DNA of 63,602 bases, counting the filler. It is 5 parts of 5 records of this genome, joined end to end, with 100 filler letters (N's around TTAATTAATTAA, not from the genome) between each part and the next. Parts side by side here need not be neighbours in the genome. Positions count along the whole stretch, not along the records: positions 22,873 to 45,644 come from SRR31156797_21461; 4 more parts are not named here. One strand, written 5' to 3'. Below, one piece after another: positions 6,141-45,744 of the stretch. The notes under the pieces are model-generated. The model ran no database searches. It was given only the letters and a program-made list of their open reading frames with translations, and was not told the origin of the DNA. Position 1 is the first letter of the stretch. Every line of letters begins with the position of its first letter. The translations under genes were made by a program, and so were the position numbers.

Positions 6141-6145
6141 ATTTT

Positions 6146-25055: not shown

Positions 25056-25383
25056 AAGTTAAAAGGTTAGTTTAAATTAGATTCCACTAAATTAAAGAAT
25101 TCCAAACTCTATTCTCAATAAAAGCAATTTAAAATATCAATTATTAATAATAAAAATAAATAGAATCCTAATCACAAAACCACACGCCAAACAATCAATA
25201 AATACGAAGGATATAAGTATCTTAATCCATCTATTTTCAATAGGTAGTTTGAAAATTAATTAGTATTATTGCATTAACAAAAGATGTTAAACCTTTCAGA
25301 TTTTCAGAATAATGCGTTGCATTTACAAATATGTGCAAATTGAGAATTGAAAGTTTTTTGTATAACATGTTTATCCCAAAAGA

Positions 25384-29256: not shown

Positions 29257-29288
29257 CCTTTTCCGTTAGTTTTGTTTAGTTAGTTTTC

Positions 29289-29302
29289 TGTGTGTGTGTG
29301 TG
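29289..29302. repeat. (TG)7 simple sequence repeat in the citC leader
   Basis: tgtgtgtgtgtgtg 33-46 nt upstream of the citC start. Confidence 0.85.
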
Positions 29303-29443
29303 ATTTTTTTGTACTTCTTCTCAGTATTCAATTATATGAGATTTTACTGAAAATTCATCCTTCCATTAACATGTTTCAGAGGTTATAAATACATCAAAAA
29401 TCATGATAAATGTTATTTGTTTTTAGTTCTCGATTTAGTAGCG

Positions 29444-30835: not shown

Positions 30836-30926
30836 CAGTTCCGCCCCTTCTGTATTCCCATTTAAAAATACACCCTAAAAGTAAAACTACAATTAGGGTG
30901 CACAAAATATTTATTTAAGATTCTAT

Positions 30927-32498
30927 CTAAGATAGATTTTCGACATTATAAATTACATCGATAATAGTACCATCTCGATACTCAACCAATGCAACAATTT
31001 TATCTCCCAATTGCTTTTCAGCTGGAACACCAGTCATGTTATCCACTTCCTCTTTCAAGTCTCGGATATCAACAACCTTTACACCAGATTTTTTCAAGGC
31101 TGCAGCAAGATTTGGTTTCGATGGATTCACACAAACACCTCTTTCTGTTACTACCACATCAACACTTTCACCTGGAGTAACCACTGTGTGAACACGATCT
31201 TTCACAATTGGCAAACGACCACGGAAAGATGGACATACAACAACAGTTAAATTTGCTCCTGAAGCAGTATCGGAGTGCCCCCCTGATGCTCCACGAATTT
31301 CTCCTGAAGAACCTGTAATTACATTAACGTTGAAATCTACATCAACCTCTAATGCTCCCAATACCACAACATCCAACTTGTTGGTCATAGAACCACAGTT
31401 GTTTGGATTTGCATATTGATCACAAGTAATTTCGATATGATTTGGGTTATTCAACACAGAAGTACTTACTGCTGCATCAAATGACTGTACGTCGAAAATA
31501 GCCTGAAAAAGACCTTCTTCCAGCATGTCAACACCATAAGATGTTACACCACCAATCATGAAACTACCTTTAATATCTTTGCGTTTCATATCCTCGCGAA
31601 GGAATTTGGCAACAGCCAAAGATGCTCCTCCAGCACCAACCTGAAACGACATACCATTTTTGAACAAACCTGAATGCTCAATCACATTAGCTGCGATTCT
31701 TGCAATACGCAAGTCCATTGGTGAACTTGTGATACGAGTAGTACCCGAAGCAATTTTAGTTGCATCACCAATAGAATCAACTCTTACTACATAATCAACA
31801 AAATGCTGACGAACAGTTGATGGTACACAAGGATATTCTACCAAGTTATCAGTAACAACGATAACATTCTTGGAATATCTTGCATCAATATCAGCATATC
31901 CCATTGATCCGAAAGCTGAAGGTCCGTGAGATCCTGTTGAGTTACCTTCCTCATCAGAAGCCGAAGCAGCTAGTACTGATAAATCTGGTTTAATACGTCC
32001 GGTTAAAAAATCGCGAACACGACCACCATGAGAGTGAATTATTGCAGGGTGTTTTAATTTACCCATAGAAATAATTTCTCCTAATCTTCCACGGATTCCC
32101 GATGAAAAGATTTTCGTAATCATACCACTTTCTACGTAAGGTACTAAACCATCGTGTGCTGATGTTAAAGAAGAAGAAGCCAAAGTAATATCTTTGATTC
32201 CCATCTTATCAAGTATTTTAATGGTTTGCATTAAAACACCATCTCCACCACGCAAATGGTGATGACAAGTAACTGTCATGCCATCAAATGGATTACAATT
32301 CTTAATCGCCTCTTCTAAATTATCACATAACTTAGATGTATGCGCTTTTTTTGCTTTTAGTGTTCTCGAAATATTTGTAGATGGAACTTCATCTCCAATA
32401 ATATTTTCCCAAACTCCCTGGAAAGGTTTTAGCTCTCCCAAGCCTTCTATATATTCAGGAATTTCAACTCCCAATGCATTTTTCATGTCTATATTCAA
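30927..32498 (-). CDS. citF: Citrate lyase alpha subunit (citrate CoA-transferase)
   Basis: HHHLRGGD, HSHGGR, FQVGAGGASLAV, GASGGHSDTA, VEYRDGTIID. Confidence 0.96.
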   Translation of the reverse strand: MNIDMKNALGVEIPEYIEGLGELKPFQGVWENIIGDEVPSTNISRTLKAKKAHTSKLCDNLEEAIKNCNPFDGMTVTCHHHLRGGDGVLMQTIKILDKMGIKDITLASSSLTSAHDGLVPYVESGMITKIFSSGIRGRLGEIISMGKLKHPAIIHSHGGRVRDFLTGRIKPDLSVLAASASDEEGNSTGSHGPSAFGSMGYADIDARYSKNVIVVTDNLVEYPCVPSTVRQHFVDYVVRVDSIGDATKIASGTTRITSSPMDLRIARIAANVIEHSGLFKNGMSFQVGAGGASLAVAKFLREDMKRKDIKGSFMIGGVTSYGVDMLEEGLFQAIFDVQSFDAAVSTSVLNNPNHIEITCDQYANPNNCGSMTNKLDVVVLGALEVDVDFNVNVITGSSGEIRGASGGHSDTASGANLTVVVCPSFRGRLPIVKDRVHTVVTPGESVDVVVTERGVCVNPSKPNLAAALKKSGVKVVDIRDLKEEVDNMTGVPAEKQLGDKIVALVEYRDGTIIDVIYNVENLS

Positions 32499-32511
32499 TT
32501 AAGAAACCAAA

Positions 32512-33408
32512 TTAACCAACACTCTTCTCAATCTCTTCAAGATCGATATTAGCATATTCTAAAACTGTAATTGCACGTTGCACAACTGGTGCGTCAATCA
32601 TTTTACCATCAATAGCAAATACACCAATACCCGCTTTTTTATTTTTGATAAATTCTGAATACACACGATACGCTTTACGCACTTCATTTTCGGTTGGGTT
32701 AAACACTTCGTGAACTGTATCAACCTGTCTTGGATTAATAAGTGCTTTACCAGCAAAACCAATTTTCTTGATGTATTCAGTCTCTTCACGTAGACCTTCT
32801 TCATCATTAACATCAGCAAAAACAGTATCCAAAACATCCAAATTGTTAGCCTTACCAGCCATCACAATTCTCTTTCTTGCATAATCGATACCAACACCGT
32901 CTGGTGTTTTCACAATTCCCATATCCGCAGTTAAATCCTGACCTCCAATAGTAATTGCATCGATTCTAGGATCAGCAGATGCTATATCATACACATTAGC
33001 TACACCTTTTGCTGTTTCAATCATCACGTGAATAGACATGGTCGGTTTCTTAATTCCATGCTTTTTTTCTATTCTGCGAACCTCTTTCATAAATTCCTTC
33101 ACATCATCAACCGACTCTGTTTTAGGAAAACGAATATTATCTGGCTGCATTGGAACAATCTCTTCCAAATCGGCTAAACCAAAAGGTGTATGCATATTGT
33201 TAACACGTACACAAACTTCGGTACCGTAAAACTCTACAGTTTGCAACATGCTACGAACCAAAATACGAGCAGCATCTTTTTGATTTAATGCAACTGCATC
33301 TTCAAGGTCTAATAATACAGCATCACATCCGTACACTCCTGCTTGTTGAATCATTGCCGGATTATTTCCCGGAATGTACAACATTGATCTTCTTTTTCTT
33401 TTAGCCAT
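32512..33408 (-). CDS. citE: Citrate lyase beta subunit (citryl-ACP lyase)
   Basis: RRSMLYIPGNNP, DLEDAV, IETAKG, GKMIDAP. Confidence 0.96.
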   Translation of the reverse strand: MAKRKRRSMLYIPGNNPAMIQQAGVYGCDAVLLDLEDAVALNQKDAARILVRSMLQTVEFYGTEVCVRVNNMHTPFGLADLEEIVPMQPDNIRFPKTESVDDVKEFMKEVRRIEKKHGIKKPTMSIHVMIETAKGVANVYDIASADPRIDAITIGGQDLTADMGIVKTPDGVGIDYARKRIVMAGKANNLDVLDTVFADVNDEEGLREETEYIKKIGFAGKALINPRQVDTVHEVFNPTENEVRKAYRVYSEFIKNKKAGIGVFAIDGKMIDAPVVQRAITVLEYANIDLEEIEKSVG

Positions 33409-33695
33409 TACATTGTACCCTCCTGAATACCTAAAGAACGTTTAACTGCAGTTTCAACTCTCGCTTTAATTGTTGGTGTTAGCGCTCCTTTATCCTTTGC
33501 AATCAAGTGTACATCTTCAATACCAAGATCATTTAGCACTTGATTTACTGTAGTTTTGATATCTTCTTCGAACTGTAACATTACTGTTGAAGAAATATCA
33601 ACCTGGAGTCCGGTTCCCTGCTCAACTGGCTCAATCAAGATCATGATATCACTTGATTCAAAAGTTCCGGCCTGCGCTTTAAACTTAGGTGTCAT
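33408..33695 (-). CDS. citD: Citrate lyase acyl carrier protein (gamma)
   Basis: AGTFESSD prosthetic-group Ser motif, DKGAL..IKARVETAV; 1-nt overlap with citE. Confidence 0.95.
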   Translation of the reverse strand: MTPKFKAQAGTFESSDIMILIEPVEQGTGLQVDISSTVMLQFEEDIKTTVNQVLNDLGIEDVHLIAKDKGALTPTIKARVETAVKRSLGIQEGTM

Positions 33696-33862
33696 TGTTA
33701 ACGATATTTGTTTAATTATTCCGTAAGAATTCTATAAATTGATTATGCAAATTTTAATGTCTTTGAATAGAAATCAAAGCACTTTTAAAGATTTTTGTAG
33801 TTAATTACTTAGTGTTATAAAACACACTCAGCAAGCCGCCTATTATCAGCACATTACAAATA

Positions 33863-33876
33863 AGCAAACGTTTGTA
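33863..33876. promoter_or_regulatory. LacI-family-like operator upstream of citD
   Basis: AGCAAACGTTTGTA palindrome; second copy CGCAAACGTTTTC at 34175-34187. Confidence 0.5.
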
Positions 33877-34003
33877 AGTATATACATTTCTTACTATTCT
33901 AATGAATTTATAAACTCATTTTATTAGATCTCTACTTATTCCAGCCTTAAAAATCTTCGAATCTGTTAAAGAAAGAACAATTTTTATTTCTAAAACATAC
34001 AAT

Positions 34004-34142
34004 TACAACAAAGGCTCCGAAAAAACGGAGCCTTAATTGTTAGTGATTAGTTAGTGGTTAGAAATTCTTGCCATAAAGACAAGAAAATCAAAGGTGTGAT
34101 TAGTAAAGTATACAATGGTAATTGTGTTCTTACTTTTCAAAT
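34004..34142 (-). ncRNA. Candidate small RNA with CUAAC repeats (putative sponge)
   Basis: Full Bacteroidota promoter TTTG(34180-34177)-N21-TATATTGC(34155-34148); UCUAACCACUAACUAAUCACUAACAA tract; terminator AAGGCUCCG-UUUUUU-CGGAGCCUU-UGUUG. Confidence 0.55.
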
Positions 34143-34370
34143 ACGTCGCAATATAAGTGTTATTTTTTATATTACGCAAACGTTTTCTGAAAAAAATCTA
34201 TTTTAATTATGCAAATTTTACTGATCAACTAAAAATACATTTCAAGGTATAATAATAGTAGATTGATTAAAGATTTTTTTCCGTTAATAATTTTGAGTGA
34301 TCGATTAATGGTATGTTACTTCAATTCTAAGCACTTAAATAATTTACACTTTTCAATACCTAAAAATCAT

Positions 34371-34401
34371 CGATTAATACATTTATACAAGCTATTAATC
34401 G
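34371..34401. promoter_or_regulatory. Inverted repeat upstream of the sRNA promoter
   Basis: CGATTAATA-N13-TATTAATCG; extra TCGATTAAT half site at 34301. Confidence 0.45.
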
Positions 34402-34444
34402 GTAATTAAATCAAAATTAAGAGGCTAAGACTATTTTTGAATCA

Positions 34445-34564
34445 TCAATTTAGGTAGTAGTAAGTTAGATTAGTAAAAATTTGTTAGTGTTAGAGTTAAC
34501 TTGAACTGTTCCGCACAATCAGTTCTGAATAAAATAGCCTTTGTACCACAAGGCTATTTTTTTT
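34445..34564 (+). ncRNA. Candidate UUAG-repeat small RNA (~120 nt)
   Basis: TATTTTTG -7 box at 34432-34439; seven UAG motifs; GAACUG/CAGUUC hairpin; terminator AAAAUAGCCUU...AAGGCUAUUUU plus U tract. Confidence 0.6.
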
Positions 34565-34631
34565 GCAATAAAAAAAAGGAGCAATCAAGCACATTCCTTA
34601 ACTACTCCTTTTCGATTTTGACAATTATATT

Positions 34632-36065
34632 TTAAACTGCACCTACAAGAGAAACGGATGAAATAGTATCTCCCATTCCCACTAATGTTACTGGTTTTTC
34701 TATTAAAATAGTTGGTACAGCTATCACTTCAAGTTCATTATTTTCAAAAATACCTGTTGATAACAAATCATTTTCGCCCAAATGCATTTTCACCGTTTCC
34801 GATAAAGACTGAAGCTCATTTAATCCTACATCCGACACTTTATGATCTTTTGCCCACAATAGAACATCTTTTGCATCAATTGCACCTGTTCCTGCCTTTG
34901 CTGCAGCTACTGTTGCCGCCAATTGCATTCCATTGCGATTCTTTAAAGGATTTACCTTAAAACCTTTTTCCTGAAGTGTTACATACAATCCAAACATATG
35001 CAATTGCATTCTTGGGCATTTTGTATATTCATAAATCTTCAGCATTCCTTCAAACAAATTTGATGAGTTAGTGTTTTTCTCACATTTTGCTGCCAATTCA
35101 TCCTCTCCAATTACTTCCAGAATATCTATTAGTTCACGCTCATTAAAACCAAGACTATCCACGCTTTCAACCAAACTATCAATTAGGTGTTTTCGAACCA
35201 CTTTATCTTGCGTTGAAGCTACCTCTAAATGCAATAGATTATTTGGGCAAGATTTTCTCCAATCAGCGATCATTTTTTTGGAAAGATCTATTCGGTCAGC
35301 TCCTTTTGTCCCATCAGCTAAGTTCTCATGCAACATTTGATATCCGGATAGAATAATGTATTCCGGGTTAATATCATCTTTCGACATTCTTTTATCAAAA
35401 TTCTCATCCACATGCAATTTGAAATTTAAAGGATCATAAGTGGCAATAAAACGATTTGCCTTAGGGCAAGTATAAGTTACGCCATCAACAGTAATGGTAT
35501 CCCCCTTATCAAATTCAATAATCCAGTGAATTAATGCATTCTCATTTGCTCTATCTACTTTCGAAGCTTGTTGAATATCTCCATCTGCATTTGTGGTAAC
35601 AAGATTAGGAAGATTTAAAAACAACTGACCTTGTTCTTTTGGAGCAGAAGCACAGTGCACATAAACATTTTGCACTCCGCAAACTGCCATTACATTAGCT
35701 ACAATTCCTCCTTGTCCACCCATTTGCATTTTATCGTAGCCTACATTTTTATTCAACCATTCAAACACTTCCACTTCTTCTATCAACCACTCTTCGGCAA
35801 TACCACCTTTAAAGCAATGCAAAAAACCACGAATCGCATCTTCATTAGTACGAATTGCTTTTTCACCTGTCGAAACAATAGAATCAACCTTAAGGTTATT
35901 ATCGGTAATAAGTTTTTCAATACTTTTTCCGCTTACCTTAATTACCGCATCAACATTTGCATTAAACGCACTAATTAAACCCTTAATATTGCTCATTTTT
36001 TCCAATTGAGCAGGAGCTGATTTATAGTTTTCGAGCCAAGCAGTTTTTAATTCACTTAAAGACAT
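34632..36065 (-). CDS. ADP-dependent glucokinase/phosphofructokinase family
   Basis: FNANVDA, QMGGQGGIVAN, IHWIIEF, ANRFIATYD, ILSGYQ, HLEVAS, SLGFNERE, VGMGDTISS; ATG 36065 preferred. Confidence 0.92.
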   Translation of the reverse strand: MSLSELKTAWLENYKSAPAQLEKMSNIKGLISAFNANVDAVIKVSGKSIEKLITDNNLKVDSIVSTGEKAIRTNEDAIRGFLHCFKGGIAEEWLIEEVEVFEWLNKNVGYDKMQMGGQGGIVANVMAVCGVQNVYVHCASAPKEQGQLFLNLPNLVTTNADGDIQQASKVDRANENALIHWIIEFDKGDTITVDGVTYTCPKANRFIATYDPLNFKLHVDENFDKRMSKDDINPEYIILSGYQMLHENLADGTKGADRIDLSKKMIADWRKSCPNNLLHLEVASTQDKVVRKHLIDSLVESVDSLGFNERELIDILEVIGEDELAAKCEKNTNSSNLFEGMLKIYEYTKCPRMQLHMFGLYVTLQEKGFKVNPLKNRNGMQLAATVAAAKAGTGAIDAKDVLLWAKDHKVSDVGLNELQSLSETVKMHLGENDLLSTGIFENNELEVIAVPTILIEKPVTLVGMGDTISSVSLVGAV

Positions 36066-36208
36066 ATGGTGTGATTTTATATTATTATTCCAGATTTCAA
36101 CACTAAATATACTCAGCAAAGAAATAGAATAAAAGTCCTTTTACTTTAAAACTTTTGGGAAAACAAACGAAAAATCACTGCAATGGTTTGCAGTAAATCT
36201 GTAAAAAA

Positions 36209-36238
36209 AGACCTTTGGGAATAAATCTCCAAAGGTCT
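36209..36238 (-). terminator. Intrinsic terminator after the SPFH gene
   Basis: AGACCTTTGG...CCAAAGGTCT followed by a T-run on the minus strand. Confidence 0.75.
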
Positions 36239-36262
36239 CAGCTGAATTTTGAAAATTAAAAA

Positions 36263-37573
36263 CTATTTTTTCAATTTAGTATCCATTAATTGTTTAGCCA
36301 TCGCAGCACCAATTAAAGACTCGAGTGGCATTTTTCCATTCTTACCACCATCACCTGTAATCATTACATCAGGAAACTTAATTTTAGCAATTTCTTTAGC
36401 TACACCAATTGCAATTTCTTTCTCAATTTGTGCTCGTTCCTGAGGTGTTAAACCTGCCGAAACTAATTTTGCATTCTGATAAGATTCAGCATCAGCAGCA
36501 ACTTTCTTGGCTGCAGATTTCAATTTTTCTGTCTCTAAAGCTATTGCAGCCAAACGCTTGTTTGTTTCCTCTTGCTTTAGCTTAGTTTCAATCGAAATCA
36601 AAGCTTTCACCTGCTCTTTTTCCTGAGTAACACGCTCACCAGCTTTATCTCTTTCCCCTTCGGCAACAATACGCGCCTGAGCATCTTTCGCAGTTTTAAT
36701 TTTTTGTTGTTCCAACTGTCTTTTTGCTGATTCATCTCTCTGAGCTTCCAATCTTTTCTTAAAAACCTCTTCCAAAATCACATCATCAACAATAACTTGA
36801 GCTACAATAATATTATTTTCATTGATATCATGAGGAATACGAATCAATTTGCCACTAGCATCTTTTCTCTTCTTTACCTCATAACGGGTTTGAATTTCCT
36901 TAACGGCTCGGTTATTTTCCTCAATAGCTGATACAATTGTATCTCTGTATTCCAACTTTTCAACACTATATGCTCCAGCTTTTAATTGATCTTCAACTGC
37001 CACCCTAAAATCGGAAGCTGATCCCGAAATATAATCCTGGGCAGCAAACATATAACCTGTGTTCGACACAACCTCACGAACAGTAGGAATTAATGTATTA
37101 TGAGCTAAATTTTGCAATGATCTAAACTCAATAGCCATTTCAATAAATGACTCCTTATCTGTTGGCAATTGAAAACGAGTAGATAGTTTTGCCGATGCTG
37201 TCACCTGATCAATAAATCGAATTGGAATTGGATTCATCACCCCTTCAATATTATCTCTTTTTTCTCCTTTACTCACAACTTTTACATCGATATATTTTTG
37301 CCATGGTATAATTTTAGCAAATCCTCTCCACTTAATACCTTCTGTCATTACAGCATCTTTACCACCATTAGGATAAACAACAAAATACTGATATCCGGGT
37401 TCTGCCCAAAAAAACATAAATGGCATAATAATCATAAAAAAACCCATAACAATCACTCCAAACGAAAAACGAGCGGTAAGCTTCGAAAATAGTTGTAGCT
37501 TACTAACTAGAAATGGCTTCAAAAATAGCAATACAAGTCCTAATAGGACAACAATAACTCCTAATACAATCAT
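36263..37573 (-). CDS. SPFH/Band 7 (prohibitin-like) membrane protein
   Basis: Two N-terminal TMs, IPIRFID, AE-rich C-terminal coiled coil. Confidence 0.8.
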   Translation of the reverse strand: MIVLGVIVVLLGLVLLFLKPFLVSKLQLFSKLTARFSFGVIVMGFFMIIMPFMFFWAEPGYQYFVVYPNGGKDAVMTEGIKWRGFAKIIPWQKYIDVKVVSKGEKRDNIEGVMNPIPIRFIDQVTASAKLSTRFQLPTDKESFIEMAIEFRSLQNLAHNTLIPTVREVVSNTGYMFAAQDYISGSASDFRVAVEDQLKAGAYSVEKLEYRDTIVSAIEENNRAVKEIQTRYEVKKRKDASGKLIRIPHDINENNIIVAQVIVDDVILEEVFKKRLEAQRDESAKRQLEQQKIKTAKDAQARIVAEGERDKAGERVTQEKEQVKALISIETKLKQEETNKRLAAIALETEKLKSAAKKVAADAESYQNAKLVSAGLTPQERAQIEKEIAIGVAKEIAKIKFPDVMITGDGGKNGKMPLESLIGAAMAKQLMDTKLKK

Positions 37574-38059
37574 AAAATTAAATGGTTTAATTGGTTTATT
37601 AATTCAAGGACCAAAGTATAATTTATTTTTCAATTCAATGATATACTTATGTTGCTTTTCGACCAAGCCTATTTTATGACTTTGAAATGGCTTTTTCACC
37701 AGTTTTATGAAAATTAAAATAATTGAGTTAATAAAACACTTAATTTAATTCTGTACCAAAACAATCAAATTTTATTAATCACCAATCAAACAGCCTGTTT
37801 GTAGATTATTTAATAAATTTCGACTCTAAAATTGTATCATTTTCGTACATATATAAACGATATTCAATTCGTGGTCATTGAGGTTATCACAAAATCATCA
37901 AAAATTGAAATTCGAGTAAGAATAGTCCATCAACCTAAATGAATATTTACTAAATATTTTAAAAGACATGCTGATAAACAATTAAAACAATAGAGATACA
38001 TCTGGATATTTATATATATTTGTCAACTGAATTCAAAAACAAAAGAAAATATTATAAAT

Positions 38060-38473
38060 ATGAAAGCAACAACTACCTGGACAAAAGGAATGTCGTCGGT
38101 AATTACCAACAACAGAGGTCATGAAATTACAATTGATTTACCTGATGGTAAAGGAGGTGAAAATCTTGGTGCAACAGCTTTTGAAGTATGCTTAATGAGC
38201 TACTCTGGTTGTGTAAACACTATCTTCAATGTAGTCGCTAAAAAGATGAGAATTGAGTTTACATCTTTAGAAGTTGATACAACAGCTCAACAGCAAAATG
38301 GAGCTCCAACTTTTACGGATGTTGAAGTTGAGTTAAGAATTGATTCAGATGCTAATGATGATAAGATTAAAAAATGCCTTGAGCAAACACTAAAGATGTG
38401 TCCTGTTGGAGTTCTATTTCATCAGGCAGGTGTTAATACTACATACAAAATTGTAAAAATGCAGAAAGCATAG
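38060..38473 (+). CDS. OsmC/Ohr-family protein
   Basis: IDLP..GGENLGATAFE..SYSGC...KMCPV. Confidence 0.88.
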   Translation: MKATTTWTKGMSSVITNNRGHEITIDLPDGKGGENLGATAFEVCLMSYSGCVNTIFNVVAKKMRIEFTSLEVDTTAQQQNGAPTFTDVEVELRIDSDANDDKIKKCLEQTLKMCPVGVLFHQAGVNTTYKIVKMQKA

Positions 38474-38495
38474 GTTGAATACCACATAATTCCAC

Positions 38496-38525
38496 AAATC
38501 CCTTACCTATGGTAAGGGATTTTTT
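38496..38525 (+). terminator. Intrinsic terminator after osmC
   Basis: AAATCCCTTACC-TAT-GGTAAGGGATTT plus T-run. Confidence 0.85.
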
Positions 38526-38566
38526 CATGCAAAAATCCAATCTTATTTACTTTACAGTTAATTATA

Positions 38567-38752
38567 CGGTAAATTCCAATTTTATCGACCATACATGGCA
38601 CTCATATATCATTCGGATGAAATTCCGAGGGGTATAAATCTTACAATTAGGAGGTTAGGATAAAAATCCACACGAATTTTATGAATTAAAAATGAACGCG
38701 GACGAAAATCCAAAGGCATTTCACACATAGAAAATGTATACGGATAATAATT
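38567..38752. repeat. Phased array of short GGAY-RAAA-WTCC palindromes
   Basis: GGA starts at 38615, 38658, 38700, 38742 (43/42/42-nt spacing); degenerate copy at 38567. Confidence 0.5.
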
Positions 38753-38909
38753 AGAGGTATGTATTTAAAAAAAATGAACATATTTTTCAATTCGTCAAAC
38801 ATTTTTATTCTATTATTAACAAATCATTAACGCTGTAAACACAGCCCAACTATTGTTTAGCTAAAAAATAAAAGACTAATTTGTATTCTATTATTAAAAA
38901 TAAAGAATC

Positions 38910-39491
38910 ATGAAGAATTTATTTGTGTTAGCTATACTACTGATCAGCTTTACAAGTTTCGGTCAGAATGAAAAAAGCAGCATAAATGTTGGCGATAAAG
39001 CTCCATCTTTTACCGCTAAAGACCAAAATGGAACAATTGTAAAAAGTGATGATATTCTTGCCAATGAACAATTGATTGTCGTTTTCTATCGTGGACAATG
39101 GTGTCCTTTATGTAATAAGCACCTTTCTCACTTGCAAGACAATGTAGAGAAGTTTAATAAAGCAGGAGCCAGACTGGTTGCTATATCACCTGAAATACCA
39201 GTAAGTGTTGATAAAACAGTTGAAAAAACAAATGCAGAATACTCTATTCTTTACGATGAAAACAGCAAAATAATGAAGGAGTATGGTGTTGATTTTGTGT
39301 TATCAGAAAAACTTCAAAAAAAATACAAAGAGTATGGAATTGATTTAACAGTTTCTAATGGTAACGATAATCAAATGCTTCCTGTTCCTGCAACCTACGT
39401 TATTGGAAAAGATGGTAAGGTAAAATATGTGCAATATGATCCGAATTATAAAAATAGATCCAATGCAAAAGATATTTTAATGCATTTGTAA
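38910..39491 (+). CDS. Peroxiredoxin-like AhpC/TSA family protein (exported)
   Basis: Signal peptide; VGDKAPSF, FYRGQWCPLC, PVPATYVI. Confidence 0.9.
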   Translation: MKNLFVLAILLISFTSFGQNEKSSINVGDKAPSFTAKDQNGTIVKSDDILANEQLIVVFYRGQWCPLCNKHLSHLQDNVEKFNKAGARLVAISPEIPVSVDKTVEKTNAEYSILYDENSKIMKEYGVDFVLSEKLQKKYKEYGIDLTVSNGNDNQMLPVPATYVIGKDGKVKYVQYDPNYKNRSNAKDILMHL

Positions 39492-39499
39492 AAAATAGG

Positions 39500-39530
39500 A
39501 AGAGCCGCAGTTTTGAACTGTGGCTCTTTT
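39500..39530. terminator. Bidirectional terminator
   Basis: AAGAGCCGCAGTT-TTG-AACTGTGGCTCTT between convergent genes. Confidence 0.75.
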
Positions 39531-40387
39531 TATATAATTCGTTTGTTATAAATCCTGTAATCTTTTGGCGACATTTTAAAGTGTGTCTTGAAAACTCGGT
39601 AGAAATAGCCAATATTTCCGTATCCACAATCTGAAGCAATTGCTTTCACAGAAGCATCGGTCATTATCAATAACCTTGCAGCATATTTTATTTTAGCCTC
39701 GTTGACTGTATCCGTTAAGGTTTTTCCGGTATACTTTTTTAGAATTCTATTGCAATGATCGAGCGATTTATTTGCTAATGATAAAAAACCATCTACACCT
39801 TGCTTAAAAGCAGCAGGAGAATTGTAGTTCTCCAAAGCAGACTGAAGCCAGTATGGCATATCAGGATTAAAGCTCTCGTATGTTGGTTCAATGATTTCAA
39901 AAATAAAAAGAAGCATTCGATCCAAATGAATGTTATTCTTTCTTTGATTGATGACATGGTCAACCTTTCCACTCAACAGACTCAATTCCTCTTTGGGTAT
40001 TCGAAAACTAAAAGGCAAATGGCTAATAGTCCAAAAATAGAGGTTGGTATCAGGAAAATACCTCATCCTATAATAATCCAATGTGGAGCTTTTAAAGGCA
40101 AGATTGGTTATTGTTAATCCTTTAGCAGCTGATTTAGCAATAAAGGTATGCTCATCACCTGGACGAATAGTACACAAATAGCCAGGAAATACTTTCACTT
40201 TCTCATCATTAATCAAGTGATATCCTTCACCTTCTTCAATCCAAAAAATCTCTGCATAATCATGGGTATGCATCTCAATATCACCTTTCGAACGCAATGT
40301 TACTCGCGCCAAATGATAAGCATCTTCGGGATTAGTAAGAAAAGAGTCCAGATGAAATTTCATGATTAATGTTTGCGGTTTATTCAC
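39530..40387 (-). CDS. AraC-family regulator (cupin sensor; ChbR-like)
   Basis: HTHDYAEIF..GEGYH cupin; IASDCGYGNIGYFYRVFK..SPKDYR HTH. Confidence 0.92.
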   Translation of the reverse strand: MNKPQTLIMKFHLDSFLTNPEDAYHLARVTLRSKGDIEMHTHDYAEIFWIEEGEGYHLINDEKVKVFPGYLCTIRPGDEHTFIAKSAAKGLTITNLAFKSSTLDYYRMRYFPDTNLYFWTISHLPFSFRIPKEELSLLSGKVDHVINQRKNNIHLDRMLLFIFEIIEPTYESFNPDMPYWLQSALENYNSPAAFKQGVDGFLSLANKSLDHCNRILKKYTGKTLTDTVNEAKIKYAARLLIMTDASVKAIASDCGYGNIGYFYRVFKTHFKMSPKDYRIYNKRII

Positions 40388-40465
40388 GACAAAATAGAAT
40401 TTTTATTCAGCAAAAAAAAGGATTGTATCTGAATACAATCCCTCATTAAAAACGATTATTTATAG

Positions 40466-41896
40466 TTATTCTAAGCCTAAATTCTTTTTTATCTTTTCTG
40501 GAAGGAATGATTTCTTTGCAAACGGATGAGCCTCTGTATTAAACACATAGTCATCCAAATTAAAAACTCCCGTTTCCTCTGTAAAAGTTAAGTATAAATA
40601 TTTCATTGTTTCCGCAAAGAAAAAAGTAGGCATGTAATCTTTTTTCTCCATTGTTCTAACATCATTAACAGATGAGAAAGCAACTTCAGTTCTGCAGTAT
40701 TTCTTGATATCCAACCAGTATTGATCAACCATATCGTAATATTTCTGTTTTCCTGTAATGTGATACAAATAATAGGCTGATTCAATAATTTCAGGATTCA
40801 AATCATAAGCCGGATAAGTCGGTTCACCTTGTTTGTAATCGTAGATCATAGGTTCCAAACCATATTTATTCCAAAGTCCATCCCAGGTATTCTGAGTTTT
40901 TTCAGCTCTTCTTAGGTCTCCATCCAAAGCTAAAATGGACTGGAAGAATGCATCGTACAAAGTTACAATGCTGGCAAATTGTCTTCCAGAATGCGGATCG
41001 ATGCAATCGCGTGTACCAGTGTGCATATTTACTCGACCATACCACAATGTTGAATCTGTTTCTTCCGCCACATGTTTATTGATAGCAGCAATACTTTCAT
41101 CCCACATTTTTTGCGAATCCTTATCGCCAAACAACAACATACTCTTGTATAAATACTCATAGTACGAATCAGCTCCAGCACAAATATGAGAATGATCGTT
41201 TAACCATTCGCCGGTTTCTACATTGATTAAATCGGCTACCAAATTCAAGTCGGAACGTCGTTCCCAAATAGCTAAATTAGCTTTCTTCGCTGTTTGATAA
41301 TAAATTGGATTTCCAGTGTAATAACTCAAAATTCCCAATTCGAACATATAGGAAGCTGCTTCAGCTAAATTAATCTTAGCTCCTTTTGTTTCGCCAGTTT
41401 TCAAGTTCACCCAGTAGTAAGGTATTCCGGTTGGAGAATCGAACGCTTTCAACATTCTTTTCCCAAAATCTTCAGCTTTTTCAAGAATTCTTGGATCTGG
41501 ATTGTATTCATACATTGCCAATAAACCACCCATAATTCGGATATTCACCTCGAATGTTTTCACAAATAAATCCTTGTCCCAACTAATACTATCTATCAAA
41601 TAATTTTCAACTTCTTTAGCTTGCTCGTCAAGTCCCATTACCTTCATGGTACTATAGGCATCAATAGGTGAGATGTGCAATGATTCCTTGTACCAATCTT
41701 GGTATGATTTTGATAATGGTAATAATACATCATGTCCCCATGCATACTTTTTATAAGCATCCCAAGATCTTACAAATTCATCCTTAACTTCCTGTGCCAA
41801 TGGATTAATTTTCACCTCTTCCTTTTTTGCTTGCTTAGGCTGGCAAGCAGCTAACACAATGGCAAAAACAATTAACAAATAACTTAGCTTCTTCAT
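40466..41896 (-). CDS. Glycoside hydrolase family 47 (alpha-1,2-mannosidase-like) lipoprotein
   Basis: Lipobox LAAC; YAWGHD, FEVNIR.MGGLL, DSYYEYLYK, PEIIES, FFFAETMKYLYL, FNTEAHP; ATG 41896 preferred. Confidence 0.92.
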   Translation of the reverse strand: MKKLSYLLIVFAIVLAACQPKQAKKEEVKINPLAQEVKDEFVRSWDAYKKYAWGHDVLLPLSKSYQDWYKESLHISPIDAYSTMKVMGLDEQAKEVENYLIDSISWDKDLFVKTFEVNIRIMGGLLAMYEYNPDPRILEKAEDFGKRMLKAFDSPTGIPYYWVNLKTGETKGAKINLAEAASYMFELGILSYYTGNPIYYQTAKKANLAIWERRSDLNLVADLINVETGEWLNDHSHICAGADSYYEYLYKSMLLFGDKDSQKMWDESIAAINKHVAEETDSTLWYGRVNMHTGTRDCIDPHSGRQFASIVTLYDAFFQSILALDGDLRRAEKTQNTWDGLWNKYGLEPMIYDYKQGEPTYPAYDLNPEIIESAYYLYHITGKQKYYDMVDQYWLDIKKYCRTEVAFSSVNDVRTMEKKDYMPTFFFAETMKYLYLTFTEETGVFNLDDYVFNTEAHPFAKKSFLPEKIKKNLGLE

Positions 41897-42128
41897 TATT
41901 AATTCAATTTTATTTTTCGTCTCTTCTATCACAACTACATCCACCCAGAATTATTACTAAGAAGATCTATGCAATTGTGATTCAAAAATACCTTATCAGA
42001 AAATTAATAAATGATACAAAAAAGACTTTTAATGTGAATTTACTACACTACAGCGATATTACCTTCAGCTTCGTTAAAATTAAAATCAAAAAAAAGGTTG
42101 ATTGTAAATCAACCTTTCCATTATAATT

Positions 42129-45100
42129 TTATTTCTGACGTTTTCGGGTAATACGAATATGTCCTTCAGGCAAGATAGTAACCCAGAAAATTTCGATAAG
42201 AAGTATTGCTCTTCGCAGTACATCAAAATACAAAGAGAAATAAAAGATGATAGTAGTTAGCCAAATGATAATCACATTGAACCAAAAAGTATCAATTAAG
42301 AAATTACCGATTCTCTTTTGGGATGCAAAAAAGTGTGCCCGCCCATTCTTATAAATAGGCGTCTGAAAAACAGGATCTTTTAATTGGATATACTCTTCCT
42401 TATACTTTATAAGCTTATTGATTTCCCTACGGTTTAATACAATTTGTTCAATGGCTTCGTTATGGTAATCTTGCTTAAACTCAATTACCTTTTTACGATC
42501 TCCCAAATTACTGATTAAGTCACCAAAAACTTTATCACGTTCATTCGATTGGGTTTTATACTCAGACCATCCCGCTTGTTTTATTTGTTCTAACCACGAA
42601 TTTACCTTTTCCTTAGAATGACGCAATCCTATCCGGGATATTTCTAAATCATCAGGAAGATTATAAATATTCGATAGTTTAATCAATTCATTTTTTATCA
42701 ATCGAAAATCTTTTTCATTCTCTTTTTTTAACCATGAATTATAAGTTTGTTTCAGAGAAGGAAGCAAGAATGATGAGCGAAAAGAGACTTCACTCATTTT
42801 TTGTTCATACGGAAAAAATTGAGATTGAAAATCATTATTCTTGAACTGCTCTACCACCAAAGCTTCGTATGCCCAACGAGATGTCATCAAATCACCAACT
42901 ATAGGAACATATTTTTGAGTCGTAATTGCCGGGTGAAGTTTATTAAAACTTACAATTACACCCGAGAATAAAAGTTGAGGCACCAAAATAAAGGGAATAG
43001 AAACGTAAACAGCAACTACCGAATTCAGTCCTGCTGACAAGTTTAATCCAATTAAATTGGCACAGGCAGAAGCTGTATAAAGTACCAGCCAGTACTCCAA
43101 ACTAAGTCCCTTAATCTCAAGAATAGTATTGGCAAACAACACAAATAAAAATGTTTGAATTGCTGAAATACTTAGCAGAATAATAACCTTTGAATTCAAA
43201 TAACTGGAGCGACTCAAATTAAGAAACTGCTCACGTTTCATCATTCTTCTATCATGAAGTATTTCTTCAGCAGATATGATCAAACCCAAAAACAAGGCAA
43301 CCACAACTGCCATAAATATGAATGACGGGATATTCTCATTCTGAGAAAATATATAGGTAGGATGATCAACATCTGCTCCACTGATATACTTTGTAAAATA
43401 TCCCAAAATAATCGCGAGCAAAGGCGCTTCCATCAAAGTAATCAACATATATTGCCGATTGCTAAGTTTTGATTTTACATCTCTTGATAAATAGATTTTC
43501 AACTGATCCCAACGCTTTGGAATACTAAAATAATTTTTAGGTATAAGTTTCTTACGTTTTGGTTTAGTAACCTTAGTTTTATTTTCAATGTTCTCCCGAT
43601 ATAGCTCATACCACTCCTCAGAACTTCTCTTACGCTTACGAATCTGCTTACCATATTCGTTCATCATACGCGCTTCGATAATGCGCAAAATTTGTTCAGA
43701 ACTTACATTCCCACAAGTCAAACACTCACTTTCATCAGCTTTCACATAATGCGATTGTGTTTTAAAATAAACTACCGCATCAATTGGGTTTCCGAAGTAA
43801 ATGACCTTCCCTCCCTGGTCCATCATCACCAGTTTATCCAGCAATTTAAAAATATCAGAAGATGGTTGATGTATATTACAGATCACAAGTTTTCCTTTTA
43901 AAACCTGTCTTTTTAAAAGAATCATCACCTTTTCGGAATCCATACTCGACAAACCCGAAGTAGGTTCGTCTACAAAAAGAACTGACGGTTCTCGCATCAA
44001 CTCCAAGGCAATATTTAAGCGCTTTCGCTGACCTCCGCTCAACACCTTATTAATTGGATCACCCACTTTAAGATCACGAGCCTCAACCAGATCAAAATCT
44101 TCAATTGTTTTATCGATAATTTCCTCTATTATATCATCAGAAGTATCGTCAAAACACAATTTGGCATTATAGTACAAATTCTCATAAACAGTCAATTCTT
44201 CAACCAATAAGTCATCTTGCGGTACATAACCAATAACTCCCCTAAGTTTTTCTTTATCGATATGAAGATTGTAGCCATTTATAAAAATTTCTCCATTCTT
44301 TAAAGGTAGATTTCCATTCAAAACATTCAAAAATGTAGATTTACCAGTACCACTACCACCCATTACACCAACCATTTGACCTGATTCCATTTTCATGCTA
44401 ACAGGTTGCAAACCATTATTTGATCCGGGAAAATTAAATTCTACTTCTTTGGCAATAAATTCAATATCTGATAAATTTCTACGCTCGATAAATACCGAAG
44501 AAATCTGGGAGTAATAAATCGGATCTATCCGAGGACTTCGAACCACAGATCCAAACGAAAGAATATAGCCCCTATCCAATTTCACATTGTGCCCATTCAG
44601 AAAGAGATTGTACTCACCAAAATACTTCATTATTAAAGTATTGGTACTTTCTAAATGCAGAATAAATATTCGTCCTCGCAATCGGGGACTATGGATATGT
44701 TTAACCACTTCATGTTCCCAATTTTCATTGCTATCAATTAGGAGTAAATGTTCATTAAATGGAATTGAATATTCATCTCCAATTAAAAACTGGCGACTAT
44801 ATTCAAACTCATGCTTTGGAATACGAAATGCTTTAGAAACGGTTTTTACAAAATCAAGTTCTTCAGGACCCGTAAACTCTGTATCATCAATAAACTCAAG
44901 CAATTGCAGCATCACCCAAACTTTTTGTTCCTGTTCAGCCTCCTCGGCTAATTTCAAACAAATATTTGCGACTTGTTCATGCTTTTTACGCAGAGAATCT
45001 TTATTTCCATCCTCGTAATACGATTCTTTTAAAAAACGATCGAAATTTTCAAGGTAGCGCTCAATCCACTCCTTACTAAACTGTTTCTGAAGCCAACTTG

Positions 45101-45197
45101 CAACAACATCACGTGCCGCCATCTCAAAACCAAGCTTTTGCTCATCCACAATAATGGCAAAAAGTCGCATCAAAGCATTCAGTAAGGATTCATTCAT
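42129..45197 (-). CDS. TerB-like + FHA-like + ABCG/White-type ATPase + ABC2 permease fusion
   Basis: GGSGTGKST, LSGGQRKR, VLFVDEPTSGL, NIHQPS, then six-TM permease; NBD-before-TMD order. Confidence 0.85.
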   Translation of the reverse strand: MNESLLNALMRLFAIIVDEQKLGFEMAARDVVASWLQKQFSKEWIERYLENFDRFLKESYYEDGNKDSLRKKHEQVANICLKLAEEAEQEQKVWVMLQLLEFIDDTEFTGPEELDFVKTVSKAFRIPKHEFEYSRQFLIGDEYSIPFNEHLLLIDSNENWEHEVVKHIHSPRLRGRIFILHLESTNTLIMKYFGEYNLFLNGHNVKLDRGYILSFGSVVRSPRIDPIYYSQISSVFIERRNLSDIEFIAKEVEFNFPGSNNGLQPVSMKMESGQMVGVMGGSGTGKSTFLNVLNGNLPLKNGEIFINGYNLHIDKEKLRGVIGYVPQDDLLVEELTVYENLYYNAKLCFDDTSDDIIEEIIDKTIEDFDLVEARDLKVGDPINKVLSGGQRKRLNIALELMREPSVLFVDEPTSGLSSMDSEKVMILLKRQVLKGKLVICNIHQPSSDIFKLLDKLVMMDQGGKVIYFGNPIDAVVYFKTQSHYVKADESECLTCGNVSSEQILRIIEARMMNEYGKQIRKRKRSSEEWYELYRENIENKTKVTKPKRKKLIPKNYFSIPKRWDQLKIYLSRDVKSKLSNRQYMLITLMEAPLLAIILGYFTKYISGADVDHPTYIFSQNENIPSFIFMAVVVALFLGLIISAEEILHDRRMMKREQFLNLSRSSYLNSKVIILLSISAIQTFLFVLFANTILEIKGLSLEYWLVLYTASACANLIGLNLSAGLNSVVAVYVSIPFILVPQLLFSGVIVSFNKLHPAITTQKYVPIVGDLMTSRWAYEALVVEQFKNNDFQSQFFPYEQKMSEVSFRSSFLLPSLKQTYNSWLKKENEKDFRLIKNELIKLSNIYNLPDDLEISRIGLRHSKEKVNSWLEQIKQAGWSEYKTQSNERDKVFGDLISNLGDRKKVIEFKQDYHNEAIEQIVLNRREINKLIKYKEEYIQLKDPVFQTPIYKNGRAHFFASQKRIGNFLIDTFWFNVIIIWLTTIIFYFSLYFDVLRRAILLIEIFWVTILPEGHIRITRKRQK

Positions 45198-45485
45198 GAG
45201 GTAAAGTTAGAATTATTGGCGCTAATGGTCTTGGTTTCTGACAAGGCACTAATTTAGACAATTTACTTGAGCTATGGAATAAAACATTTTTACAAAAATT
45301 AAATCAAAAGCAACTTAATCTATATTTATTCGATTTCATTAGAAAACAATCAGTCCAACGAATCGTACTTAATCATCGATAAAACACAAAATACAACGGT
45401 TTAATGCTTCTTTCCATGTAGTTTTTTAATCTTTTTTAACACTTCTTATCATGAGTTAACCTTTGATTTTCATACCTTTGGTAAT

Positions 45486-45580
45486 GTACTACAACAAGTA
45501 GTATTTTTCATAGATTAAAGATTTAGGTTAGTAATTAGTGGTTAGAGAGAATCCCGGACGCCCGTTCGGGATTTTTCTTT
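45486..45580 (+). ncRNA. Candidate UUAG-repeat small RNA (~95 nt)
   Basis: TACCTTTG -7 box at 45473-45480; 5' hairpin UACUAC-AACAA-GUAGUA; UUUAGGUUAGUAAUUAGUGGUUAG core; terminator AUCCCGGAC-GCCC-GUUCGGGAU-UUUUCUUU. Confidence 0.7.
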
Positions 45581-45644
45581 GCTATAACTTTAATAAAGTA
45601 CTATTAACTCTTCTTTTATAATCCTTTAACATTTTTTTGATCCA

Positions 45645-45744
45645 NNNNNNNNNNNNNNNNNNNNNNNNNNNNNNNNNNNNNNNNNNNNTTAATTAATTAA
45701 NNNNNNNNNNNNNNNNNNNNNNNNNNNNNNNNNNNNNNNNNNNN
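45645..45744. other. Artificial contig-joining linker
   Basis: N44-TTAATTAATTAA-N44. Confidence 0.98.

Follow-up and report, generated by a model that had tools for sequence, protein, structure and literature searches.

Three noncoding units on a Marinifilum contig

The stretch of DNA analyzed here (the window; 63,602 nt, five records joined with 100-letter fillers) comes from a marine Marinifilum genome, and its positions 22,873 to 45,644 are record SRR31156797_21461. This record carries a citrate lyase gene cluster and three units, A, B, and C, which a preliminary description presented as ORF-less, each bounded by a -7 box and an intrinsic terminator. All three are supported as conserved noncoding genes, and the boxes and terminators of units B and C were recovered; the conserved -7 box of unit A is another than the one given. 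Four or more TTAG per 40 nt occurred at just three places in the window (34019 to 34079, 34445 to 34504, and 45503 to 45562, all on the plus strand), the last two being the UUAG repeats previously ascribed to B and C, and CTAA reached a maximum of three per 40 nt. Our comparison set consisted of 97 Marinifilaceae genomes (35 in the marine clade and 62 others), searched with covariance models for class C, the family of unit C (R1), and for unit B (R2). The features of the record are as follows.

28183-33695, minus strand: citrate lyase cluster citD, citE, citF, citXG, and citC (Pfam), sharing the strand of unit A and downstream of it
29265-29283, minus strand: pair of CUAAC motifs in the leader of citC; weak candidate for a target site (rank 45 of 329)
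33864-33875, minus strand: second ACAAACGTTTGC site, between unit A and citD, in the window and L001 only
33998-34143, minus strand: unit A, single-copy CUAAC-repeat RNA; predicted fold with 5' domain, hairpin 2 (34065-34085), unpaired CUAAC block, and terminator
34011-34034, minus strand: terminator hairpin of unit A; the stem varies between genera yet stays paired
34037-34062, minus strand: CUAAC block UCUAACCACUAACUAAUCACUAACAA; predicted to be unpaired, and complementary to C and B (25-mer search, duplexes)
34149-34156, minus strand: TTATATTG, -7-like box of unit A (TAnnTTG variant), conserved across loci
34174-34187, minus strand: GAAAACGTTTGCGT, palindromic operator of LacI-family type overlapping the -33 TTTG of unit A, conserved in 21 loci
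34432-34439, plus strand: TATTTTTG, -7 box of unit B (TAnnTTTG)
34445-34566, plus strand: unit B, single-copy UUAG-repeat RNA (R2) whose terminator loop holds (G)UACCA
34534-34557, plus strand: predicted terminator of unit B, then a T-run
45473-45480, plus strand: TACCTTTG, Bacteroidota-type -7 box of unit C (TAnnTTTG-like), at the same place in related copies
45487-45580, plus strand: unit C, FopS-like class-C small RNA gene (R1, 88.8 bits) with 5' hairpin, unpaired U/A/G-rich seed, and terminator
45525-45549, plus strand: stretch of the unit C seed with predicted pairing to unit A (GGUUAG-UAA-UUAGUGGUUAGAGA)
45547-45576, plus strand: predicted intrinsic terminator of unit C, with compensatory changes in the family alignment
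45645-45744, no strand: contig linker (N44 + TTAATTAATTAA + N44); the contig ends 64 nt past unit C

Unit C (fold z-score, -4.6) appears to be one gene of a multicopy trans-acting small RNA (sRNA) family, distantly related to Bacteroides FopS and GibS. Its unpaired seed, UUUUUCAUAGAUUA..AUUUAGGUUAGUAAUUAGUGGUUAG, leads into the terminator, where 5 of 9 predicted pairs carry compensatory changes in the family alignment. Matches to R1 numbered 7 to 15 per genome in five relatives, in tandem arrays, and 2 to 20 per genome in 25 of the 97 genomes (E < 1e-10), often in tandem, so the genome-wide count bears out the multicopy family proposed earlier. A short variant gave 4 to 12 matches per genome in nine additional genomes of the family, and G001, the closest relative, has four more tandem copies after the orthologue of this copy. 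Unit B had been described as a paralogue of unit C; its R1 score (9.9 bits, E 7.9) shows no detectable homology to class C, only the UUAG motif being common to both. R2 matched exactly once per genome in 21 of the 97 genomes, and the unit B hairpin loop UUCC(A/G)CACA is invariant. Unit B would be a second, single-copy RNA with a UUAG-type seed motif like that of class C. A -33 TTTG and a -7 TAnnTTTG at the usual spacing fit both units B and C exactly.

Is unit C related to FopS? The Rfam FopS model (RF04319; gathering score, 56 bits) aligned over its whole length with positions 45501 to 45582 at 27.8 bits (E 0.016), and class-C copies of relatives scored 31 to 43 bits, again below the cutoff; the sole match above it (78 bits) was in G222, on a 1.9-kb contig. 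Where coordinates were compared, in the four genomes G001, G003, G157, and G158, the sub-threshold matches coincided with class-C copies. The block common to RF04319 and unit C, GU.UUUUUCAU.G.AUUA.A..UU.AGGUUA.UAA (for FopS and class C also read as UUUUUCAU.G.AUUAGAUUUA.GGUUA.UAA), occupies positions in the unpaired 5' seed (R1/R1' of FopS) that are invariant columns of the class-C alignment. Homology to FopS had been left unestablished; similarity is now consistently detectable, though below threshold, and unit C is best described as a putative sub-threshold but consistent relative of FopS. The 5' words UUUUUCAU of class C and FopS are antisense to AUGAAAAA, which fits pairing at start codons. 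Duplexes of this 5' module at or below -12 kcal/mol were predicted for 20 of 329 start regions; 40 shuffled seeds averaged 10.4, with a maximum of 20. The available text on B. thetaiotaomicron FopS describes repression of translation of SusC-like/PUL mRNAs by pairing at the start region (PMC11697453), and by analogy class-C RNAs would block translation through pairing over or close to start codons.

Unit A and the citrate lyase cluster

A 25-mer from unit A (fold z-score, -7.0) was found once per genome in 22 of the 97 genomes, with no control matches, and 15 of the 22 copies were identical. A variant, A', occurred once in each of 8 further genomes, and more variants could be read in G158 and G198, so that unit A, variants included, was present in 32 of the 35 marine-clade genomes. 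G211 has class-C copies, and unit A was not found there between the PFK gene and citD. Mean column identity was 73%; the CUAAC block was nearly invariant across genera, while its flanks diverged.

The hairpin at 34011 to 34034 is terminator-like on both strands in the window, and the Marinifilum U-tail, UUUGUUGU, is weak. In Labilibaculum, Ancylomarina, and G198, 6 to 9 T's (7 to 9 in the two named genera) follow the hairpin on the CUAAC strand, and in these other genera the T-run terminator is found on that strand only. On the promoter side, 21 loci share a TTTG followed after 17 to 19 nt by TATATTG, a one-base variant of the box; this is the element at 34149 to 34156, and the box named in the preliminary description is not the conserved one. 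These data agree with the minus-strand orientation suggested earlier: unit A is most likely transcribed from the minus strand, and would be an independent RNA.

The operator over the unit A promoter (GCAAACGTTTGC in clade 2) is identical to words of footprinted Streptococcus pneumoniae MalR sites (CGCAAACGTTTKSG), and its words also equal ChIP-mapped Escherichia coli PurR sites. No LacI-family gene was found among the Pfam matches in the window. In 13 of 16 loci, unit A precedes citD by 340 to 460 nt and is read from the same strand, and in Labilibaculum both have been relocated away from the PFK gene and are still linked. The link to carbon metabolism that had been proposed is thereby strengthened, with unit A and its LacI-type operator at the head of citDEFXGC. 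A LacI-family repressor could occlude the unit A promoter at this position.

Complementarity of unit A to units C and B

Both complementarities in the preliminary description are exact: 34051 to 34062 of unit A with 45535 to 45546 of unit C (12 nt), and 34037 to 34045 with 34481 to 34489 of unit B (9 nt). The predicted duplex with the unit C seed (20 bp interrupted by a 3-nt bulge; -24.7 kcal/mol) was reached by none of 2,000 mononucleotide shuffles, and that with unit B (-17.2 kcal/mol) by 51 of 2,000. Full-length cofolding of A and C used the same seeds, with a gain of -17.1 kcal/mol. Within their own genomes, A-C duplexes were at or below -19 kcal/mol in 10 of 10 genomes, and A-B duplexes belonged to the lower tail of the shuffles (0 to 21 of 500) in all 12 genomes compared, despite diverged B seeds. 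The CUAAC block therefore outdoes shuffled controls against both partners; because shuffling destroys repeats, these tests show complementarity at the level of the motif (UUAG versus CUAA), not of a specific register. Within the C seed, the predicted partner of unit A is the 3' half rather than the FopS-like 5' end, and the predicted duplexes of unit A with C or B would depend on UCUAACCACUAA.

Energy by itself does not single out unit A. Its window ranked 14th in pairing energy with C among 92,566 40-nt windows (463 kb), about nine windows elsewhere did better (-24.8 to -27.8 kcal/mol), and the five better-scoring places that were mapped to ORFs were all antisense to a gene. We found no lineage-specific covariation between A and C: the own-genome mean was -25.0 versus -23.6 kcal/mol across genomes, with scattered ranks, and A' of G157 reached -19.7 kcal/mol with C of the window versus -15.2 and -17.0 with its own C' copies. 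CUAAC and ACUAACCU sites do exist, as had been noted, upstream of citC (29265 to 29283), the TPR-PD40 gene (25064 to 25071), and the ABC fusion gene (45206 to 45210), but such leader sites are not enriched: CTAAC occurred 17 times in 329 start regions versus 15.1 in shuffles (117 of 300 shuffles reached 17), and 8-mers of the core seed matched 7 genes versus 7.2 for shuffled seeds. At least one CTAAC is present in the citC leader of 8 of 11 clade-1 sequences (the window and 10 loci) and absent from that of the closest relative.

The reading that we tentatively favor, at somewhat less than an even chance, casts unit A as a regulated RNA decoy ("sponge") for FopS-like sRNAs. Its nearly invariant, unpaired CUAAC block would base-pair with the C and B seeds; once induced, unit A would titrate or destabilize these sRNAs and so relieve their targets. 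With one A gene facing 7 to 20 C genes, titration would need strong expression of unit A, and G211, the pairing with the 3' half of the C seed, and the lack of covariation also speak against the decoy reading. No transcript was seen; the one RNA run aligned yielded short pieces within coding regions only. Sequence, conservation, copy number, synteny, complementarity, and the promoter and operator motifs are observed here; from them we infer that the units are transcribed, that they pair in vivo, which way regulation runs, and what is targeted.

One alternative, which we consider unlikely, makes unit A the regulated 5' leader (or attenuator) of citDEFXGC, with a transcription start at the operator-controlled promoter and the hairpin at 34011 to 34034 as a conditional terminator. 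C and B would then act in trans on the read-through or stability of this leader, and unit A would be their target. The shared orientation and spacing with citD speak for it, as do the weak Marinifilum U-tail and the fact that most loci have no AAACGTTT operator close to citD other than that of the unit A promoter. However, a conserved promoter-like element (GAAAGAC..TAAAATTTG) about 50 to 100 nt upstream of citD suggests that citD probably has its own start, and the T-runs of Labilibaculum, Ancylomarina, and G198 point to a strong terminator. Moreover, the terminator stem does not include the CUAAC block, and it is not obvious how pairing at the block would open the stem. Could the complementarity exist without any RNA-RNA function? 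Unit A might be an inverted UUAG-type copy or an independent low-complexity repeat whose block is conserved for other reasons, e.g., as a protein- or DNA-level site. Its plus strand (TTGTTAGTGATTAGTTAGTGGTTAGA) does resemble the C seed, with 12 identical bases, and both the missing covariation and the equally strong chance sites elsewhere in the 463 kb speak for this account. We nevertheless regard it as improbable, given a block that is nearly invariant between diverging flanks, unpaired between two covarying hairpins, and on the strand of the promoter and terminator. The variants A' and G198-A differ in sequence and retain CUAACC repeats, and in 12 of 12 genomes complementarity to B has survived the rearrangement of B seeds.

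The UUAG repeats of C and B could instead be binding sites of an RNA-binding protein, making these RNAs CsrB-type protein sponges whose titration unit A modulates or to which it is unrelated. A multicopy family whose unpaired region repeats a single short motif four to eight times would suit such a role, and the 5' region of FopS is bound and antagonized by the RRM-1 protein RbpB in B. thetaiotaomicron, according to the available text (PMC11697453). Searches for RRM-1 (PF00076), Hfq, and CsrA genes argue against it, each returning 0 of 5 clade genomes while positive controls worked (B. thetaiotaomicron for PF00076); no candidate protein emerged. Across the 35 marine-clade genomes, PF00076 gave a single weak partial match (G209, 23.4 bits) versus 56 of the 62 other family genomes; the RRM component of the system proposed earlier is not borne out, and we judge the protein-sponge explanation very unlikely. 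We know of no sRNA chaperone in the lineage of unit A.

Going beyond the decoy reading, the clade may combine many FopS-like sRNAs, with RRM-1, Hfq, and CsrA not found, and a LacI-controlled unit A that has taken over the antagonist role of RbpB, coupling citrate or sugar status to release of FopS-type translational repression in an all-RNA regulator/anti-regulator pair. This wider scheme is speculative, and we think it fairly unlikely. If it is true, the FopS family is old and widespread in Bacteroidia, reaches free-living marine anaerobes, and works without an RRM-1 partner; unit A would be a conserved RNA with features suited to an anti-sRNA, none having been described for Bacteroidota in the literature searched. 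The word "sponge" has no occurrence in the available text of the FopS paper (PMC11697453) or of a 2026 review. In the proposal, one defined operon, that of citrate lyase, and a defined operator are linked with posttranscriptional control, and it is testable in cultured strains (Marinifilum fragile, M. flexuosum, and Labilibaculum species).

Comparison with FopS and with known sponges

To our knowledge, FopS and RbpB are so far known from gut Bacteroidaceae alone. Like FopS and GibS (RF04319 and RF04182) as far as the available descriptions go, class C has canonical TAnnTTTG promoters and an unpaired 5' seed followed by one terminator. Copy numbers are similar in the same sources, with 14 FopS copies in B. 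thetaiotaomicron (12 to 15 in Bacteroides) and 7 to 20 class-C matches per genome here (PMC11697453). FopS is described there as about 65 to 70 nt, made up of a single-stranded 5' segment and one Rho-independent terminator, whereas class C is about 94 nt, with 14 to 20 extra 5' nt (an extension or a hairpin) and an added 3' seed module, which in clade 1 is AUUAGUGGUUAG. Unlike FopS, class-C copies often stand in tandem arrays; their hosts are marine Marinifilaceae rather than Bacteroidaceae, and RbpB-type RRM-1 proteins, the partner of FopS in Bacteroides, were not found in the marine clade.

Sponges and decoys of sRNAs in Proteobacteria and Firmicutes include SroC for GcvB, the 3'ETS-leuZ fragment, the chb mRNA trap for ChiX, and RosA. 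Like these, unit A exposes sequence complementary to the seed of a trans-acting sRNA and is predicted to be conditionally expressed. Rather than a by-product of an mRNA or tRNA precursor, unit A seems to be a dedicated gene, standing alone and with an operator-controlled promoter to itself, and it would act on an entire multicopy family.

Predicted UUAG-repeat RNAs of two distinct classes

Three predicted RNA units and a citrate lyase operon share one contig piece (22873-45644). Five contigs are joined in the window, and thus genes flanking a linker need not be neighbors.

Features of the window
6616-6715, 22773-22872, 45645-45744 and 55910-56009: four linkers (N44 + TTAATTAATTAA + N44) joining the five contigs
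33695-28183 (-): citD-citE-citF-citXG-citC, headed by unit A
34143-33998 (-): unit A, CUAAC-repeat RNA (class A)
34445-34566 (+): unit B, UUAG-repeat RNA (class B)
45487-45580 (+): unit C, FopS-like RNA (class C)
Segments in the predicted pairing of unit A: UCUAACCACUAA and its partner UUAGUGGUUAGA

At least four TTAG per 40 nt were found at only three places in the 63.6-kb window, which are units A, B and C, with all TTAG on the plus strand; CTAA reached a maximum of 3 per 40 nt anywhere in the window. Rfam at gathering thresholds matched no family over the full window. Since an E-value search of 33900-34650 gave chance-level matches only, units A and B match no Rfam family. One RNA run (word share 0.07) yielded only short contigs from relatives, inside coding regions, and was uninformative on the units; the analysis of the units rests on relatives' loci and genomes.

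The preliminary description had proposed that the UUAG units are paralogous members of a family. For unit C, a multicopy family was confirmed by building a covariance model (R1) and counting copies. Searching relatives' loci by pattern revealed 25 more copies of the unit C type, arranged in tandem arrays of 2 to 6 with a period of ~185 to 215 nt, each with a terminator and a TAnnTTTG-like box. When 23 copies were aligned, the center, UUUCAUAGA...AUUUAGGUUA, proved invariant and was predicted to be unpaired, and the terminator covaries, with double changes at five of nine pairs. R1 scored 88.8 bits on unit C of the window and matched 13, 7, 15, 11 and 9 times in the genomes of five relatives; strong matches (E < 1e-10) were present in 25 of the 97 Marinifilaceae genomes, with 2 to 20 per genome. 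A shorter class-C variant (UUUUUCAUAGGUUAGAUUUAGGUUAGUAAGAAAA plus terminator) had 4 to 12 matches in each of nine more genomes (G156-G164). When 151 genomes were sampled evenly across the order, more than two R1 matches were found in G001 only. In G001, the closest relative, four further tandem copies follow the orthologue of unit C and, given that the window's contig ends 64 nt beyond unit C, the assembly probably broke within such an array. Weak R1 matches at 6107-6191 and 21882-21969, both within coding regions, were rejected as noise.

Unit B did not join this family. R1 gave it 9.9 bits (E 7.9), indicating an RNA distinct from class C, so that the proposed paralogy of units B and C is not supported. 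The 17 orthologues of unit B share a stretch of UUAG-type repeats that varies between copies, a hairpin whose loop, UUCC(A/G)CACA, is invariant, and a terminator loop that retains (G)UACCA. The class-B model, R2, had one match and no more in each of 21 of the 97 genomes. In Marinifilum, the class-B copies carry a -7 box of their own. In Labilibaculum (L012-L015 and L003), class B begins right after the apparent stop codon of a same-strand upstream gene (...TTCGATGA); judged by this arrangement, the Labilibaculum RNA may be derived from a 3' UTR.

Beside unit B lies a gene of the ADP-dependent phosphofructokinase/glucokinase family, a sugar kinase gene (34632-36119, minus strand), with 95% identity to a homologue of an uncultured Marinifilum and 76 to 87% identity to homologues of other Marinifilum, Labilibaculum and Ancylomarina. 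Relatives with 46 to 53% identity occur in many metagenome-assembled genomes (MAGs) of gut Alphaproteobacteria as well as in Bacteroidota, an odd distribution that suggests transfer.

Unit A upstream of the citrate lyase operon

Unit A is a single-copy element. Its 25-mer CUAACCACUAACUAAUCACUAACAA (up to three mismatches) was found exactly once per genome in 22 of the 97 genomes, 15 of these copies being identical, and the reversed control pattern had no matches. The flanks have diverged, with a mean column identity of 73%. Sequence changes among genera in hairpin 2 and in the terminator leave their pairing intact. In the window, the terminator hairpin scores as terminator-like on both strands; in Labilibaculum and the Ancylomarina salipaludis group, 7 to 9 T come after it on the CUAAC strand only, which supports the minus-strand orientation originally assigned to unit A.

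The promoter reads A(A/C)ACGTTTGC(G), a spacer of 17 to 19 nt, and TATATTG in 21 loci. Its -33 TTTG lies within a palindrome, and TATATTG is a one-base variant of the -7 box. The palindrome equals words described as footprinted MalR operators (CGCAAACGTTTKSG) and ChIP-mapped PurR sites, e.g., AAGAAAACGTTTGCGT. This identity makes it likely that a LacI-family repressor acts at the unit A promoter, with GAAAACGTTTGCGT as the candidate operator word; no LacI-family gene is encoded in the window.

A motif search placed unit A on the strand of citD, 340 to 460 nt upstream of that gene, in 13 of 16 loci. In Labilibaculum this linkage is kept, both elements being shifted 2.9 kb from the kinase gene. 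A diverged variant, A' (ACUAACCGAUAAGAUCUCACUAACCNCUAAUCC), keeps this promoter and has a strong terminator; it occurs as one copy in each of 8 of the 97 genomes, the clade that carries the short C' variant. The promoter pattern was found in none of five further genomes (G198, G197, G211, G215 and G158). Reading the DNA upstream of citD directly revealed further unit A variants in G198 and G158, and no form of unit A in G211; in G215, citE stands at the contig start. Some form of unit A was thereby located in 32 of the 35 genomes carrying a close citE. G211 (L007 and L222), a Labilibaculum MAG, has class-C matches and is missing both class A and class B; its citD directly follows the kinase gene, behind a bidirectional terminator.

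Several short words recur around these units. TAAAATTTGCATAAT occurs twice on the minus strand (33742-33756 and 34206-34220); one copy, ~50 nt before citD, is kept across genera and resembles a citD -7 box, and the copy upstream of unit A is missing in the closest relative. A CA-rich word recurs as (A)UCACAC or CCACACA in the citC leader of most relatives (29284-29305) and in unit A, within its conserved 5' domain (~34094-34101), and as UUCC(A/G)CACA in the hairpin loop of unit B (34509-34517), which is invariant. In five Ancylomarina-group loci (L213, L214, L215, L216 and L220), several sites show a T-run immediately after (C)ATTAGTGGTTAGA, and some of these sites are homologous between genomes. 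These sites may be 3' ends of further UUAG-type RNAs; the word itself had 15 matches, 5 of them unit A', against 6 in the control, which is not clearly above it.

Complementarity, mRNA leaders and protein partners

Can the CUAAC block of unit A pair with the UUAG units, as the preliminary description had proposed? The unpaired CUAAC block and the seed of unit C form a predicted duplex of 20 bp with a 3-nt bulge at -24.7 kcal/mol, an energy reached by none of 2,000 shuffles, and cofolding of the full-length RNAs used the same segments with a gain of -17.1 kcal/mol. RNAduplex on the full-length RNAs gave looped duplexes, which were discarded as meaningless. For units A and B of the window, pairing was predicted at -17.2 kcal/mol (51 of 2,000 shuffles reached it), and the per-genome values fell in the lower tail in all 12 genomes (0 to 21 of 500 shuffles). 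In Labilibaculum, the A/B duplexes reached -22 to -31 kcal/mol with 11 to 13 perfect pairs, despite differently arranged B seeds. Own-genome A/C pairing was at or below -19 kcal/mol in 10 of 10 genomes. The preliminary observation is real and mostly beyond chance.

Other results speak against a functional pairing. In a scan of 92,566 windows of 40 nt, drawn from the window and 400 kb of G001, class A ranked only 14th; the top four fell on unit C's own antisense strand, about nine elsewhere equaled or beat class A, and all five better-or-equal places that were mapped to ORFs are antisense to a coding gene. Lineage-specific covariation of A and C was not seen, with mean energies of -25.0 for own-genome pairs versus -23.6 for cross-genome pairs, and A' of G157 paired more strongly with C of the window than with its own C'. 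Because of this rank and because own pairs are no better than cross pairs, the support from sequence is motif-level complementarity plus conservation, not compensatory evolution. It is on this ground that complementarity without function has to be weighed, a reading that we consider unlikely beside the near-invariance of the block between diverging flanks and the uniform tail of the A/B energies. Equally improbable in our judgment is the reading of unit A as the leader of the citrate lyase operon and a target of the UUAG RNAs; its position upstream of citD is what this reading would explain, and a terminator lies at its end. Unit A is a conserved and probably regulated RNA, and its exposed block complements class C and unit B; our preferred reading, held tentatively, is that it would act as a decoy for them.

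The proposed layer of CUAAC-bearing mRNA leaders did not rise above shuffled controls in CTAAC counts, core-seed k-mers or duplex ranks. Among 329 start regions called from 463 kb, CTAAC occurred within 50 nt upstream of starts 17 times versus 15.1 in shuffles (117 of 300 reached it); CTAACC alone was mildly enriched (6 versus 2.1; 7 of 300 shuffles). Matches of 7 to 9 nt to the invariant core were equally frequent for shuffled seeds in these regions. With the C seed, the three leaders named originally took ranks 34, 40 and 45 among the 329 regions; with the B seed, they took ranks 8, 20 and 104. In clade 1, 8 of 11 sequences (the window and 10 loci) have one or more CTAAC in the citC leader, and the closest relative has none. 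The 5' module of unit C (UUUUUCAUAG..., antisense of AUGAAAAA) found 20 start regions at or below -12 kcal/mol, where 40 shuffled seeds had a mean of 10.4 and a maximum of 20. The top predicted targets had no common theme.

An RRM protein had also been suggested as the partner of these RNAs, a suggestion at odds with the protein searches. RRM_1 (PF00076) was not found in any of the five clade genomes searched. Across the family, it was present in 57 of 97 genomes, including 56 of the 62 outside the marine clade, and among the 35 marine-clade genomes it matched in G209 only, weakly and partially (23.4 bits); this distribution is clade-level and perhaps reflects one evolutionary event, so these counts are not independent statistics. 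With positive controls included, Hfq and CsrA were each found in 0 of 5 genomes.

Relation to the FopS and GibS RNAs

Literature searches found a single, unrelated paper for Marinifilaceae and small RNAs (sRNAs) and, judged by the records listed, no system of sRNA sponges in Bacteroidota; the word "sponge" does not occur in the FopS paper (PMC11697453) or in a 2026 review of gut commensal sRNAs.

We compared class C with the Rfam 15 models of FopS (RF04319, cut-off 56 bits) and GibS (RF04182), using E-value thresholds. RF04319 aligned end to end to 45501-45582 (+) with 27.8 bits (E 0.016 to 0.019), below its cut-off, and the GibS model gave 20.6 bits on unit C. The letters common to FopS and unit C, GU.UUUUUCAU.G.AUUA.A..UU.AGGUUA.UAA, are the same letters that are invariant in the class-C alignment. 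Across relatives, RF04319 scored 31 to 43 bits in 29 of the 97 genomes, and its matches were the R1 class-C copies in all four marine-clade genomes compared by coordinates (G001, G003, G157 and G158). The cut-off was exceeded in one family genome only, G222. There, a 78-bit FopS match (L203, C202:320-386) sits on a 1.9-kb contig and the rest of the genome is without the family; this match could be contamination or a mobile element.

As described in the FopS paper (PMC11697453), FopS has 14 copies of ~65 to 70 nt each in B. thetaiotaomicron, is conserved within Bacteroidaceae, is antagonized by RbpB, and pairs through its 5' seed beside the start codon of susC-like mRNAs. Homology to FopS had been left open; the similarity proved consistent, and the scores stay below the 56-bit cut-off and thus outside formal Rfam membership. 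Taken together, the sub-cut-off end-to-end alignment, the common invariant letters and the coinciding matches in relatives lead us to read class C as a new and distant branch of the known FopS/GibS type of sRNA.
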